Positions 9,393-29,606 of a DNA stretch of 30,282 bases are shown piece by piece. Numbering within the stretch: the first letter of the stretch is position 1; each line of letters opens with the position of its first letter. The stretch comes from Pseudomonadota bacterium (GTDB lineage Bacteria > Pseudomonadota > Alphaproteobacteria > Rhizobiales > Aestuariivirgaceae), in contig JBKOZY010000466.1 in the NCBI GenBank assembly GCA_046726135.1, positions 1 through 30,282 on the forward strand, written 5' to 3'. The position numbers and the translations under genes are program-made. The notes below the pieces were generated by a model, which did no database searches, had not been told where the DNA came from, and saw only the letters and a program-made list of their open reading frames with translations.

Positions 9393-9460
9393 AGGCATTA
9401 GGCAATAGGCAGTGAGCCCTGAGCCTCTGCCTACTGCCTACTGCCTACTGCCTACTGCCC
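9393..9460. repeat. Heptamer palindromic element, copy 1
   Basis: AGGCATT AGGCAAT AGGCAGT - gagccctgagcct - (CTGCCTA)x4 CTGCCC, between convergent rnd and ppx. Confidence 0.9.
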
Positions 9461-9463
9461 ACC

Positions 9464-10981
9464 CTACCCGATCACCACCTTGCCGGTGCGGCCGAGCAGG
9501 CTCGCCAGCGCATCGAGCCGCTTCTGCACGGTCTCGCCCATGAGATCGGCATGGGAGCGACGCAGCCCCAGGATCAACCCCTTGTCGGGCGCGGCCTGCA
9601 AGGTGATCTGCGGCAGCAGGCCCGGCATGGCGGCAGTCAGCACATAGGCGAGCCGCATCGCCGCGGCGAGCACCCGCGCCCGCTCGATCCAGTCGTCCCG
9701 GAGCAGCCTCAGGAGCTCGCCCGGCGCATCCTCGCTCGAGGGCCCCTCATAGCGGTAGAACACCGCGAGCGCGATGAAGACGCGCGAGGGGTGGTCGATG
9801 CCGACAAAGGCCGCCTGGGTGATGGTCATGAGCGAGCGGCCGCCGCGATAGTCGGGATGGGCGCGCCAGGAGATGTCGGCGAGCATGCAGGCGGCGCGCC
9901 GCAGCCGGGCTTCGTCGGCGCTTTCCTTGATCATCCCCTGTTCGACAAGCTGGTTGGTCCATTCGGCAAGCTCGATCTCATGGCTCGGCGAGCGCGAATA
10001 GCGGCGGGCAAAGTCCCAGCAGGCGGCGAGCAGCGGGTCGCCCAGGCGCTTGCGCTTGTCGAGCTTGGAATAGAGCAGGCCTTCGCGCAGTCCATGCGCC
10101 GAGACGATCACCGCCTTGGGCTTGCCGGCGGTCAGGATGCGGTCCAGCACCAGCGCCCCGAATGGCAGCGTGTCGGCGCGGCTGCGCGACAGGGCCCGCA
10201 CATCCTTCAGCGATGCCGGCGACAACCCCGCCACCAGGCTTGCCACCGAGCGCGCCGAGTCGCGCGCCATCGTGTAGTAGTGCAGCACCGTCAGCGGATA
10301 GCCGGTCTGGCGCATGTGAAGGCGGGCAAGGTTGCGCCAGGTGCCGCCCACCGCATAGAAGAACCGGCCGCGAAGCCGGTCCATCAGTGCGGTTTGCTGG
10401 AGCTGGCCATCGATGATGTTGCGGGCTTTCGCCACCGACCCGCCCGACATGTCGATGAGCCTCAACGGCCCAAGCGGCAGGGTCACGCCGTCGCGGATCG
10501 CGCCGTCCTTCACATCGACGAGCTCGAGGCTGCCGCCGCCGAGGTCGCCGACAATGCCGTCGGCGGCGGGAATGCCGGAGATGACGCCGAGCGCCGCGAG
10601 CTGCGCCTCATCCCTCCCGGCGAGAATGGTGATCGGGGCGTCGAGCGCCTCCTCGGCATTGCGGATGAAGCTCTGTCCATTGGCGGCCTCGCGGGCCGCC
10701 GCGGTCGCCACCGCAAAGACCTCGATGACGCCGATCTGTTTGCCGAGCGCGCGGAACCGCCGCAGCGCCGACAGTGCCCGCTCGATGGCATCGGCCGGCA
10801 GGTTGCCGGTCAGCGACACGCCGCGACCGAGACCGCACAGGATCTTCTCGTTCACCACCGGCGTCGGCGCGCGCCTGAGACCGTCATAGACCACGAGACG
10901 CACCGAGTTCGACCCGATGTCGACAACCGCCACCGGTCGAAAGCGCAGGGAGCCGCCTTCCAAGTCCTTGACGAAAGTCAC
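9464..10981 (-). CDS. ppx: Exopolyphosphatase, Ppx/GppA family, 505 aa
   Basis: [38 protein letters not shown] and C-terminal [14 protein letters not shown]. Overlaps the ppk1 stop by 4 nt. Confidence 0.93.
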
Positions 10982-13203
10982 TTCCGCGCCTTGACCTTTT
11001 TCGAGATGTCTCCGGAGATCTCGGGCGGCAGCCGGTCCTTGAGCGAGCTGCCGCGGCCCGACAGCGACGGATTGTTCATGAAATACTCATGGGCGTTGAA
11101 TGGCTCCTCGCCGGGCTGAAGCTCGATGCGCCGCCACGAGCCGTCGGCAAGAAGCTCCCAGCTCTGCTGGTTGTCCTTGAGATTGGCCACCATGATCTGG
11201 TCGAGCACCTGGGTGTGAACCGTGGGGGTGAAAATGGGAACGAGAGTCTCCACCCGGCGGTGAAGATTGCGCGGCATCCAGTCGGCCGAGGAGATGTAGA
11301 CGCGGGCCCGCGGATGCGGCAAGCCGAAACCGGAGCCGAAGCAGACGATGCGCGAATGCTCGAGGAAACGACCGATGAGGCTCTTGACACGGATATTGTC
11401 GGACAGGCCGGGGACGCCGGGCCTCAGGCAGCATATGCCGCGAACGACGAGGTCGATCTGGACGCCGGCATTGCTCGCGACATAAAGCGCATCGATGAGC
11501 CCGGGATCGACCAGCGAGTTGAGCTTGGCCCAGATCTGGGCCGGGCGCCCCGCCTTGGCATGGGCGATCTCCTCGTCGATATGCTCGAGCAGCCGCTGCT
11601 CAAGCGTCAGAGGCGAGATCGAGATCCGCTCGAGCTCCTCCGGCTGGGCATAGCCGGAGACGAAGTTGAAGAGCCGCGCTGCATCGCGGCACAGCGCCGG
11701 ATCGGTGGTGAAGAAGGAAAGGTCGGTATAGATCTTGGCGGTCACCGGATGATAGTTGCCGGTGCCGTAATGGACATAGGAGCGCATCTGCCCGCCTTCG
11801 CGGCGCACCACCATCGACACCTTGGCGTGGGTCTTGAGCTCGATGAAGCCGAACACCACCTGCGCGCCGGCCCGCTCGAGGTCGCGCGACCACTGGATGT
11901 TGGCCTCCTCGTCGAAGCGCGCCTTGAGCTCGACCAGCGCCATCACCGACTTGCCGGCCTCCGCCGCCTTGGAAAGTGCCGCGACGATCGGGCTGTCGCG
12001 CGAGGTGCGGTAGAGCGTCTGCTTGATGGCGACGACATCGGGATCGGCCGCCGCCTGCCGGATGAACTGCACGACCACGTCGAAGGATTCATAAGGATGG
12101 TGGACGATGATGTCCTTCTGGCGGATCGCCGCGAAGCAGTCGCCGCCATGATCGCGGATGCGCTCCGGGAAGCGGGCGTTGAACGGCTTGAATTTGAGGT
12201 CGGGCCGCTCGTCCAGGATGAGCAGGCTGGTATCGGCATAGCCGATCAGGCCCGAGCAGGCGATGATGACATCGTCGCTGACCTGCAGCTCCTCGGCGAT
12301 GAATTTGCGCAACGCCGCCGGACACGCGGCGTCGACCTCCATGCGAATCACCACGCCGCGCCGCCGCCGCTTCAACGCCGTCTCGAACAGCCGGACCAGA
12401 TCCTCGGCTTCCTCCTCGATCTCGATATCGCTGTCGCGAATGATGCGGAACAGCCCCTGGCCAAGCAGGTCGTAACCCGGGAACAGCCGCGGGATGAACA
12501 GGGTCAGCAGCTGCTCGAGCGCCAGGAAACGGGCGCCGGCGCTGATCGACGGCAGCCTCACGAAACGCTCGAGCTGGTGCGGGATCGGCAAGAGCGCGTT
12601 CATCCGGTCGCCGTCCTTGCGGCGCTTCAGCTCGGCAGCGAGGAAGAAGCCGCGGTTCGGGATGAACGGAAAGGGATGTGCCGGATCGATGGCGATGGGC
12701 GTGACGACGGGCAGGATCTGATCGAGAAAGCGCTGGTCGAGCCATGCCTTGTCCTCGCGCGCCAGCTCATGCGGCTCGAGCACGGTGATGCCATTGTCGG
12801 AAAGCTCGCTCCTCAGCTGATGCCAGCGGGTGTCCTGCTCGCGCATCAGCTCATTCGCCTCGGTGCGGATGAGGTCGAGCCGCTCGGCGGCGGTCAGCCC
12901 GTCCTCCGAGATCTCGACGACGCCGAGCCGCATCTGGCCGACCAGGCCGGCGACACGCACCATGAAGAACTCATCGAGATTGTTGCCGCTGATCGACAGG
13001 AAGCGGAGCCGCTCGAGCAGCGGATGGCGCGGATTGCGCGCTTCCTGGAGAACGCGATAGTTAAAGCCGAGCCAGGAAAGCTCGCGATTGATGAAGCGTG
13101 ACGGGTCCTCGAGCAGCGACTTCGCGTCGGCGCGCCGCGACAGCGCCGTCACCTGAGAGCTCGCGGCCATCGTCTCGACCGGTTCGCGGCTTTCACTCGT
13201 CAT
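10978..13203 (-). CDS. ppk1: Polyphosphate kinase 1, ~741 aa
   Basis: [65 protein letters not shown] and SADWMPRNL motifs. Confidence 0.97.
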
Positions 13204-28717: not shown

Positions 28718-28850
28718 GCCCTCTCTTGCTGCCCGAAAAACCAGTGGTCAAGTGCCGCTTCGTCGTTGCAGCCGCGCCCTCGGTGAATAGACTCAGGCCC
28801 GCGTAACTGCAGGGGTAAGTGAAAGAAATACAGGGCTTGGGGAGGCTCTC

Positions 28851-29546
28851 GTGATGGGGTCACGGGCGGCGCAGCTGGCTGCGCTCATTTTTCTGCTCAC
28901 ACATCTTGGCGGTCCATCGGCTGGGGCGATGGGCCTGTGCGATTGCTGCGGCAACAAGGCGGCGCTGACCTCGGACTGCCGGTCGGCCTGCGCCGCCGCC
29001 AAAGAAGAGATTCCTATGTGCCGGCCAGTGGTGATCTATGACGGCGATGCCGGGACGCCGTCGGGCGACAATGCGCTGGCGGTGGGTTCGCTCAAATACC
29101 TCAGCATGGGACGCCCGGATCGTCCGGCGCTCGAGCGCTACCGAAAATGGTTCGAGCTGTGGCGCAGCCGCGCCGAGGAGAAATTCCGGGCGGCGGTCGT
29201 CCGCAGCGCGAGCGGCGAAGACAGCATTGCCGAGTTCGCCCAGGCCGAGGCCGAGCGCGATCAGGTGCTGGTGAACTACCAGCATGGCATGCGCCGCTAT
29301 ATCGAGATCCTGCGGGCCGGCCGCCCCGAGCGGGTTGACATGGTTCTCGCCACGGCTCTATCGGCCAAGGCAGGGGTGGTTGCACCGCGCCGTGCGATGC
29401 CCCGCAGCCAGCGCGCCGCGCGGCGGAAAGTCGCTCAGCAGAAGGGCGTTCAGCAGAAAGGCGTTCAGCAGAAACTGGTCCGCGTTGCTGACAGTACCGC
29501 CAAGGTCTGCACAGGAAACTGGGTAAACGCCGCCTGCTCGCCATAG
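28851..29546 (+). CDS. Hypothetical Cys-rich exported protein, ~231 aa
   Basis: GGGGAGG SD before GTG/ATG, signal-like N-terminus ending SAGA, CDCC..C..C..C cluster, basic tail with QQKGV repeats and two terminal Cys. Confidence 0.7.
   Translation: MMGSRAAQLAALIFLLTHLGGPSAGAMGLCDCCGNKAALTSDCRSACAAAKEEIPMCRPVVIYDGDAGTPSGDNALAVGSLKYLSMGRPDRPALERYRKWFELWRSRAEEKFRAAVVRSASGEDSIAEFAQAEAERDQVLVNYQHGMRRYIEILRAGRPERVDMVLATALSAKAGVVAPRRAMPRSQRAARRKVAQQKGVQQKGVQQKLVRVADSTAKVCTGNWVNAACSP
29436..29474 (+). repeat. Intragenic 15-bp tandem repeat, ~2.6 copies (QQKGV)
   Basis: CAGCAGAAGGGCGTT CAGCAGAAAGGCGTT CAGCAGAAA. Confidence 0.8.
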
Positions 29547-29549
29547 ACC

Positions 29550-29606
29550 AGGCAGTAGGCAGTAGGCAGGGCGTGGAGCGCGATCACTGCCTACTGCCTA
29601 TTTGCC
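29550..29606. repeat. Heptamer palindromic element, copy 5 (overlaps the pepA stop)
   Basis: AGGCAGT AGGCAGT AGGCAG - ggcgtggagcgcgatca - CTGCCTA CTGCCTA TTTGCC; 14-bp perfect inverted repeat. Confidence 0.9.

Follow-up and report, generated by a model that had tools for sequence, protein, structure and literature searches.

The window, a 30,282-nt stretch of DNA (contig JBKOZY010000466.1) from a soil bacterium of the family Aestuariivirgaceae, contains five short palindromic repeats. Each consists of two arms of tandem 7-nt units, AGGCAGT-type on the left and ACTGCCT-type on the right, separated by a short spacer. We suggest that these repeats are probably gene-less, non-autonomous members of a family of hairpin cassettes of the 23S rRNA intervening sequence (IVS) type, in which the full-length cassette carries a gene of the Pfam family PF05635. 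Such elements would be tolerated at the stop codons of genes and, by analogy with the rRNA insertions, are probably substrates of RNase III.

The window is one contig (C466) of a metagenome-assembled genome (MAG), here called G000, of 2.63 Mb in 495 contigs, with 64.7% GC and a completeness of 84.5%. Contigs of G000 match two public MAGs labelled Aestuariivirgaceae at 94% and 85% identity, which places it in this family. It was compared with five other species of the same genus, G001 to G005; MAG assemblies of the genus break at the repeats. All five copies listed in the initial annotation were found at their coordinates and with the layout described above, apart from small differences at the edges, and none of them contains an open reading frame (ORF). 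A genome scan for inverted arrays, which the initial annotation had proposed, identifies about 194 two-armed elements in G000 with a median length of 66 nt and a strong bias towards gene 3' ends. The dimer AGGCAGTAGGCAG, with at most one mismatch, is found 305+326 times in this genome, compared with 1+2 for the same pattern read backwards. Arrays with a period of seven are dominated by the words AGGCAGT (179), AGGCAAT (47) and AGGCATT (40). The arm order is always the same, AGGCAGT-type followed by ACTGCCT-type, in 112 elements, and the reverse order was found in none. Arm lengths vary independently, as noted earlier for the five copies, from 1 to 11 units. Rare unit variants that recur between distant copies are also real, but they are consensus features of the family, with AGGCATTAGGCAATAGGCAGT present 22 times, CTTCCCTACTGCC 48 times and CTACTGCCTATTTGCC 20 times in the genome.

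The spacers had been described as unique to each copy, and this is refuted by the census. The modal spacer, counted from the last AGGCAGT to the first ACTGCCT, is 17 nt long (77 of 194) and has the consensus GAGCGGTGCTCTTCCCT; the five spacers of the window are diverged versions of this one core. Among the 76 oriented copies with a 17-nt core, 13 of the 17 positions are kept in at least 70% (most positions 70–97%). The diverged core confers polarity on the element, which the initial annotation had suspected from the junction between left arm and spacer. It lies on the plus strand in copies 2 and 3 and fits better on the minus strand in copies 4 and 5, where it has more mismatches than in copies 2 and 3, while copy 1 is too diverged to be oriented.

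The two arms differ in their make-up. Units 5' of the core comprise 148 AGGCAGT, 86 AGGCAAT and 71 AGGCATT, while the 3' arm is nearly pure ACTGCCT (276 units). Because of this difference, A-C mismatches of the core strand correspond to G-U pairs in the complementary strand, which therefore folds better; this is the case in 90 of 132 copies, with a mean gain of about 2 kcal/mol. As RNA the hairpins are predicted to be very stable on both strands (-24 to -51 kcal/mol, z-scores -2 to -6), with near-perfect stems of 20–35 bp. We also considered that the core itself could be a selected mini-hairpin, as GAGC/GCTC pairing is possible. However, its variable positions do not covary, and we therefore read the core as sequence inherited from a master copy and not as a selected structure. 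A resemblance of arm plus core to the 338–360 region of 16S rRNA was judged to be due to chance (about 0.05 by a rough, after-the-fact estimate).

The position of the elements relative to genes is highly non-random. Gene positions were taken from a crude codon-usage gene caller made for this analysis (2594 genes, 90.5% coding), and its crudeness is a caveat that counts against our reading of the following figures. Of the 290 convergent gaps, 77 (27%) contain an element, compared with 75 of 1519 gaps between tandem genes and 11 of 292 between divergent ones. Compared with all other gaps (86 of 1811), the enrichment in convergent gaps has an odds ratio of 7.3 (p 1e-27). The idea of a dispersed, non-autonomous repeat family located at gene 3' ends is thus borne out by both the census and the gap bias. 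Within tandem gene pairs, the orientation of the core relative to the direction of transcription is not significantly biased (35 vs 20, p 0.058).

The median distance from the edge of an element to the neighbouring stop codon is zero, with peaks at -2, -9, -16 and -23, so that at these distances the TAG of unit one, two, three or four serves as the stop codon. Among genes adjacent to an element, 138 of 211 (65%) end in TAG, compared with 26% in the whole genome, and in 121 of the 211 (57%) the stop codon lies within the arm. These 138 genes account for 23% of the 592 TAG stops in G000, and several protein C-termini are encoded by elements. Read inward from outside, both arms spell TAGGCAG, so that all frames meet a TAG within 21 nt, while arms in the reverse order would supply no stop codon.

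The initial annotation had also suggested a search for a family of small genes flanked by the same arms, and such a gene was found. The sole PF05635 gene of G000 (23S_rRNA_IVP, profile match E 3.9e-34) is located on a contig other than that of the window (C248:9329-9712, corresponding to L142:1474-1857). It lies between the stop codon of nuoC and the start codon of nuoD, and is flanked by a TAGGCAG-type array on the left and a CTGCCTA-type array on the right. No other cargo was found between arms in this genome. PF05635, the '23S rRNA intervening-sequence protein' or S23p, is a four-helix bundle related to Avd, the accessory protein of diversity-generating retroelements (DGR). The closest relative of the G000 protein with a solved structure is XCC0516 from Xanthomonas campestris (PDB 2GSC, E 7.8e-19), which is a homopentameric toroid (PMC4990558). 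A literature search on S23p/PF05635 returned only one paper on Coxiella and one DGR review.

The same cassette is present at the same nuoC-nuoD site in G001–G004, and its gene is under purifying selection (dN/dS 0.07–0.13). All genus copies that we examined are located at junctions of protein-coding genes and none in 23S rRNA. The five species with an intact PF05635 gene, G000–G004, have 230–440 word dimers per strand. In G005, on the other hand, there are only 9+7 AGGCAGT dimers (5+4 for the backwards control), and its nuoC-nuoD gap contains TAGTGAG-type arms around an internally deleted PF05635 remnant that has lost about 60 residues from its middle. The G002 assembly contains two versions of the nuoC-nuoD gap (L143:1-760 and L144:1-520, on contigs C151 and C80). 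One has TAGGCAG arms and the other TAGCGAA/TAGTGAG arms, with a PF05635 protein that is only about 56% identical. These two versions point to strain heterogeneity in the MAG and to the replacement of a whole cassette at a single site. In another genus of the family (G024), a cassette with GGGCAAT arms is located at the same nuoC-nuoD junction.

The initial annotation had considered the element lineage-specific, which does not hold, as the AGGCAGT word is amplified also in Acidobacteriota, Planctomycetota, Chloroflexota and Mesorhizobium. A scan for three tandem AGGCAGT units in one genome per species matched at least 119 contigs, including cultured strains. Among the matches listed are Acidobacteriota, Planctomycetota, Bacteroidota, Chloroflexota, Cyanobacteriota, Gemmatimonadota, several alphaproteobacterial families and others. 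Again among the matches listed, a sense ORF of at least 100 codons ends between -25 and +200 nt of the array start in 88% of cases, compared with 33% at random positions, and the ORF stops at or within the first three units in 43%, compared with 4.4%. The repeat words are also found, at small shares, in soil DNA sequencing runs.

Five of these distant genomes were studied for both word and gene. The word dimers number 275+234 (backwards control 4+9) in a member of Pyrinomonadaceae (G041), 440+434 (3+2) in one of Thermoguttaceae (G042), 99+104 (3+5) in one of Vicinamibacterales (G043), 185+175 (0+2) in one of Chloroflexia (G044) and 43+33 (2+12) in a Mesorhizobium (G045). PF05635 genes are present in all five, and nearly all copies lie between word arrays that face inward; four of these genomes have a copy with AGGCAGT arms. 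By comparison, PF05635 scored above the cut-off in 3 of 35 relatives from outside the genus and in 1 of 14 control genomes. If the two are associated, the words flanking the other PF05635 copies should be those amplified in the same genome, and this prediction held. TAGTGCA is found 355+342 times in G042, never in G041 and once in G000, while AGTAGAC is found 1315+1175 times in G041, 20+5 times in G042 and never in G000. Finally, among unselected metagenomic PF05635 relatives, 50 of the 71 loci for which both flanks were available have the same 6–9-nt word in inverted arrays, compared with 2 of 371 small genes in G000 (70% vs 0.5%). The physical and phyletic association of PF05635 with word-repeat hairpins extends over several phyla.

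Elements are also gained or lost between closely related species. A comparison with 381 kb of G004, whose identity to G000 is 92–95%, showed that G004 lacks 4 of 28 mapped G000 elements and that at least 3 of 24 elements of G004 have no counterpart in G000. At the cleanest junction (G004 C143:50820 compared with G000 C234:2285), the element lies between GG and CTGA; the gene stops at the first TAG of the element, the protein is unchanged and no target duplication is present. At other filled/empty junctions a few spacer bases are replaced and C-termini are altered, e.g. from ...FGKS* to ...FGKDGIRH*. At one site G000 has a solo unit where G004 has a full element.

From these observations a mechanism can be proposed. 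The arms of the cassette would consist of a 7-nt word, here TAGGCAG, repeated in tandem and facing inward; the full-length cassette would carry the PF05635 four-helix-bundle gene in its loop, and the short copies would keep only the arms and the 17-nt core. Since each frame reaches a TAG after at most 21 nt, a copy that lands at or beside a stop codon takes no more than a few C-terminal residues from the host. Such a low cost would explain why copies accumulate at the ends of genes, and above all in convergent gaps. By analogy with the homologous 23S rRNA IVS, the transcribed stem should be cut by RNase III, and an rnc gene is present in G000. The elements would then act as sites of RNA processing or as sites that define 3' ends, and not as classical U-tract terminators.

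Several observations weigh against this reading. The contrast between intact and broken genes within the genus amounts to one evolutionary event, and despite its broken gene G005 has kept about 20 short copies of AGGCAAT type with the same core. An intact cassette is present without dispersed copies both in G024 and in G026, another member of the order. Proteins of at least five lineages are found with AGGCAGT arms, and the clustering of these arms on the protein tree is no better than with shuffled labels (76 of 500), which argues against recognition of a specific word sequence by the PF05635 protein. The 17-nt core does not obviously derive from the cassette by internal deletion, and it matches the inner ends of the cassette only weakly (GGGAA by the left arm). 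The filled/empty comparison, recommended earlier as a way to detect target duplications, revealed neither these nor a conserved target, so transposition is not established; nor is there a conserved flank around the elements. As a side observation, the short elements of G005 at L169:85-215 and L172:60-110 consist of AGGCAAT/GGGCAAT units and are possibly relics that predate the break of the PF05635 gene. We also looked for co-variation between protein and word in trees of 21 and 65 proteins, and it was unsupported; both trees are poorly resolved, and the larger one relied on crude ORF trimming and on a crude grouping of words in which AGTAGAC was counted as AGGCAGT-type.

Some of these points would be expected if the word-armed hairpin were self-sufficient. 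It would then have been spread by recombination and repair of the host or by an unrecognised enzyme, and the PF05635 gene would be a mere passenger in the loop with no role in the short copies. The intact cassettes without dispersal in G024 and G026, the loose tie between words and protein lineages and the short copies retained in G005 all fit this idea, and PF05635 has, to our knowledge, no known catalytic activity (solved structure 2GSC). However, a passenger would not be expected to sit in such hairpins in 70% of unselected cases when only 0.5% of control genes do, to be under strong purifying selection in the genus where the expansion took place, or to be present in 10 of the 10 AGGCAGT-rich genomes examined against a base rate of about 9%. 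We therefore regard a self-sufficient hairpin as rather unlikely. The evidence bears on an association between PF05635 and the hairpins, and it does not extend to a causal role of the protein.

It is improbable that the elements are bidirectional terminators, or stabilisers of mRNA 3' ends of the type of bacterial interspersed mosaic elements (BIME), which the host has selected and keeps for gene expression, and for whose function the kinship with the cassette would be irrelevant. The strong bias towards 3' ends and convergent gaps would suit such a role, as would hairpins that are very stable on both strands and the ordinary GC hairpin that G005 has at the site of copy 1. But a tract of at least 5 T in the 10 nt after the stem is found in only 11% of the copies (background 4%), so the copies do not qualify as classical intrinsic terminators. 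Ideas of an amber-suppression back-up and of Rho sites were likewise considered and not retained. Sister species lack the element at many sites, where the stop codons are only 1–4 nt apart, protein C-termini are altered, and elements occur also inside operons directly before start codons, as at nuoC-nuoD, at copy 2 and on contig C259.

Even less likely is mobilisation by a REP-associated tyrosine transposase (RAYT, also TnpA-REP, a Y1 HUH transposase), as known for repetitive extragenic palindromic (REP) elements and BIME, with GTAG as the recognition tetranucleotide. A GTAG is indeed created at each AGGCAGT/AGGCAGT junction and, as in REP/BIME, the elements are short intergenic palindromes at 3' ends in hundreds of copies without target duplication. 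However, a search for RAYT/Y1 proteins (PF01797) was negative in all six genus genomes, one of which is 100% complete, while the same search was positive in 2 of 4 genomes from other families of the order and in 6 of 14 control genomes. Here the arms are instead tandem heptamers of variable number and the associated gene encodes a four-helix bundle, not an HUH enzyme, so the likeness to REP/BIME drawn in the initial annotation does not extend to mechanism. A reverse transcriptase (PF00078), also suggested as a possible partner, was found among the genus genomes only in G001 and has no association with the arms. Independent growth of simple-sequence repeats in place by replication slippage, without common origin or mobility, would account for the freely varying unit numbers, the expanded arm of copy 2 and the solo unit at the G000 site that is filled in G004, but is highly improbable because the shared asymmetric 17-nt core, the fixed arm order and the shared arm asymmetry cannot arise about 200 times independently.

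The heptamer family is kin to the 23S rRNA IVS. In G026 a PF05635 ORF with GGTGTCA heptamer arms is located inside 23S rRNA and, reading from the flanks, its insertion site appears to be the helix-45 region. The helix-45 IVS of Coxiella burnetii likewise contains an S23p ORF and a 28-bp terminal stem with tandem GACAGAT heptamers whose number varies between strains, and RNase III cleaves within this stem, where the first repeat begins (PMC4990558). Like the cassette, ORF-bearing IVS of this kind, also present in Leptospira, Brucella and Xanthomonas, have a long terminal hairpin with a PF05635/S23p ORF in its loop and tandem heptamers in its arm. They differ in that the cassette here lies between protein-coding genes and is accompanied by about 194 gene-less derivatives on mRNA 3' ends. 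Moreover, the S23p of Coxiella is decaying while the protein here is under purifying selection, and cleavage by RNase III would follow here by homology. The master copy at nuoC-nuoD has the gene and the arms of an IVS cassette, the window copies have only the arms, and the rRNA location, which for IVS is helix 9, 25 or 45 of 23S rRNA, is absent from both.

Among the dispersed elements described so far, the GGGAATC arrays of Xanthomonas come closest to those of G000. X. campestris and X. axonopodis (GGGAATC) and Nostoc (GGGGA(C/T)T) have convergent heptamer arrays (Rehm et al. 2015, PMC4692102). In Xanthomonas there are about 190 dispersed intergenic arrays per genome, including 70–75 convergent pairs, within 50 bp of a stop codon in the sense strand, and the Xanthomonas and Nostoc arrays were interpreted as G-quadruplexes (PMC4692102). 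The convergent pairs near stop codons are shared with our elements; the word is different, no conserved core has been described and no link to S23p has been drawn, although the solved structure 2GSC (XCC0516) comes from X. campestris itself, a host of the GGGAATC arrays. A G-quadruplex cannot form here, as AGGCAGT contains no run of three or more G.

Other heptamer families are more distant. The TAACTGA repeats of Beggiatoaceae form direct arrays, mostly upstream of start codons (PMC4679880). Both these and the short tandemly repeated repetitive (STRR) sequences of cyanobacteria resemble our elements in consisting of intergenic tandem 7-nt units in hundreds of arrays, with a patchy distribution across phyla that suggests horizontal spread. 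They differ in having other words in direct arrays, while here inverted pairs surround a conserved core on stop codons. The heptanucleotide STRR were reportedly described in heterocystous cyanobacteria by Mazel in 1990, and Mrazek is said to have found long simple sequence repeats with units of 5–11 nt in non-pathogens in 2007. The cyanobacterial STRR units are CCCCAGT, TTGGTCA and CAACAGT, and not the units dominant here (AGGCAGT, AGGCAAT and AGGCATT). The mycobacterial interspersed repetitive units (MIRU) are reportedly (Supply and co-workers, 1997) direct tandem units of 40–100 bp that contain small ORFs. They are likewise intergenic in operons and overlap with the flanking stop and start codons, but differ from the inverted heptamer arms found here. 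Miniature inverted-repeat transposable elements (MITE) share the inverted arms and the presence/absence polymorphism between close relatives, and differ by their target-site duplication.

A literature search for the exact repeat returned only papers on the miR-30 short hairpin RNA (shRNA) scaffold and no bacterial repeat. The reason is that arm plus core (24728-24759 and similar copies) contain CAGTGAGCG and CTGCCTACTGCCT, which are also present in that scaffold, so that full-text searches return mammalian shRNA papers. The overlap of CAGTGAGCG/CTGCCTACTGCCT with miR-30 is a coincidence, relevant to the screening of sequences for vector contamination.

Some observations concern what lies next to the arrays. 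One-armed AGGCAGT arrays are located in G000 at C119:2095-2629, C83:8455-8821 and C39:16672-17250, each followed by a shared end sequence (AGGACCC-TTAA-type). On C119 this leads into an ORF that by eye resembles a transposase of the IS5-family type (MAELFWFSDEQW...). Insertion sequences appear to have inserted at or in heptamer arms in at least three places in G000. A second, unrelated repeat family consists of GC-rich hairpins, CCTTCTCCCCG...CGGGGAGAAGG with GGGGCGGATGAGGGG, for example at C39:16700-17235, C252:8450-8600 and, in G005, L168:60-90. On C39 two inverted copies of this family flank a 188-aa ORF, read by eye as a DUF559/Vsr-like endonuclease. This may be another gene-plus-hairpin cassette, and its gene-less copies often adjoin heptamer elements.

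The five copies of the window illustrate the variation within the family; no Rfam match at the gathering score was found within the window and, as stated in the initial annotation, no mobilising enzyme is encoded there. Copy 1 (9393-9460), the strand of which cannot be assigned, has a left arm of three units, AGGCATT AGGCAAT AGGCAGT (9393-9413), a diverged 12-nt core (9414-9425) and a right arm of five ACTGCCT-type units (9426-9460). It occupies most of a convergent gap, with the stop codon of the left gene 42 nt before it and that of the right gene 3 nt beyond it. The predicted RNA fold is -39.5 kcal/mol on the plus strand and -50.6 on the minus strand (z -4.7 and -5.8). An element is present at the orthologous site in G001–G004 with differing unit numbers and unit words. 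In G004 both arms are GTGAGT-type, i.e., the two arms have changed together.

Copy 2 (about 20606-20822, plus strand) is expanded. A left arm of eight units is followed by the core AAGTGTTGCTCTTCCCT (20662-20678), with one mismatch to the 12-nt core motif GGTGCTCTTCCC, and by a right arm (20676-20819) in which a 15-nt super-unit, composed of a heptamer and an 8-nt variant, recurs 9.6 times with 97% identity. On one side of the element is the stop codon of the upstream minus-strand gene, which overlaps with the last unit, and on the other the start codon of the next gene (20590), to which the array comes within about 15 nt. G002 and G004 have an element at this site, and G001 and G005 have none. 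The minus-strand gene (20820-23108) contains a 111-nt coding repeat of 2.6 copies and 93% identity at 22530-22982, embedded in low-complexity sequence rich in CTG/CTGTTG.

Copy 3 (about 24714-24759, plus strand) is minimal, with two units on each side of the core GAGCGGTGCGCTTCCCT, which is close to the consensus. It lies in a convergent gap, and the TGA of the right gene abuts its last unit. In G004 and G005 the site is empty and the two convergent stop codons are about 1–4 nt apart; in G001 an element is present with its core in the opposite orientation. Copy 4 (about 28189-28258, minus strand) has a two-unit left arm, a diverged 18-nt core and a right arm with the variant units ATCTGCC and AATGCC, which contains the stop codon of the upstream minus-strand gene. 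Its RNA folds are -32.3 and -37.2 kcal/mol, and no element is present at this site in G001 and G005.

Copy 5 (29550-29614, minus strand) contains three perfect AGGCAGT units, a 15-nt core in reversed orientation and three right-arm units, with RNA folds of -39.8 and -34.8 kcal/mol. It fills a convergent gap in which the left gene stops 3 nt before the element. The last codons and the TAG of the right gene are supplied by the arm, and its protein ends in ...YESVGK*, compared with ...YESR* in the G005 orthologue without an element. The 3' part of the left gene contains a 15-nt tandem repeat (29426-29474; 3.3 copies, 88% matches).

Tandem heptamers in bacterial intergenic regions have been reported since 1990 without a mechanism, while the ORF-bearing IVS of 23S rRNA were regarded as an oddity of their own. 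One genus now offers a possible bridge between the two, with an rRNA IVS with heptamer arms in a relative, a cassette at nuoC-nuoD and about 200 gene-less copies at stop codons. A sister species, G005, with a broken PF05635 gene and almost no copies provides a natural contrast. What is added here is this contrast of gene and copies at the level of the genus, the test of the word prediction and the control-backed figure for inverted arrays around PF05635 genes. For annotation, the consequence is that stop codons and C-termini can be supplied by the element; 23% of the TAG stops of G000 belong to genes adjacent to an element, and 121 stops are located within arms.

The heptamer repeats also gain a testable partner, a concrete protein with a concrete RNA or DNA ligand, and cultivable hosts exist in Mesorhizobium strains with the same AGGCAGT arms. 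Among these, Mesorhizobium sp. GbtcB19 has AGGCAGT arrays together with an AGGCAGT-armed PF05635 gene (L146), and arrays are present also in M. loti DSM 2626. It can be speculated, though we hold this only tentatively, that the pentameric S23p/Avd-like protein is the trans-acting partner of word-repeat hairpins, and that it might bind the arms by their structure or periodicity, and not by the exact word, and drive either their copying to new stop-codon sites or an RNase III-type processing. If this is true, the STRR, the Xanthomonas GGGAATC, the TAACTGA and the AGGCAGT families would, together with the ORF-bearing rRNA IVS, be one mobile-element system with a common protein.

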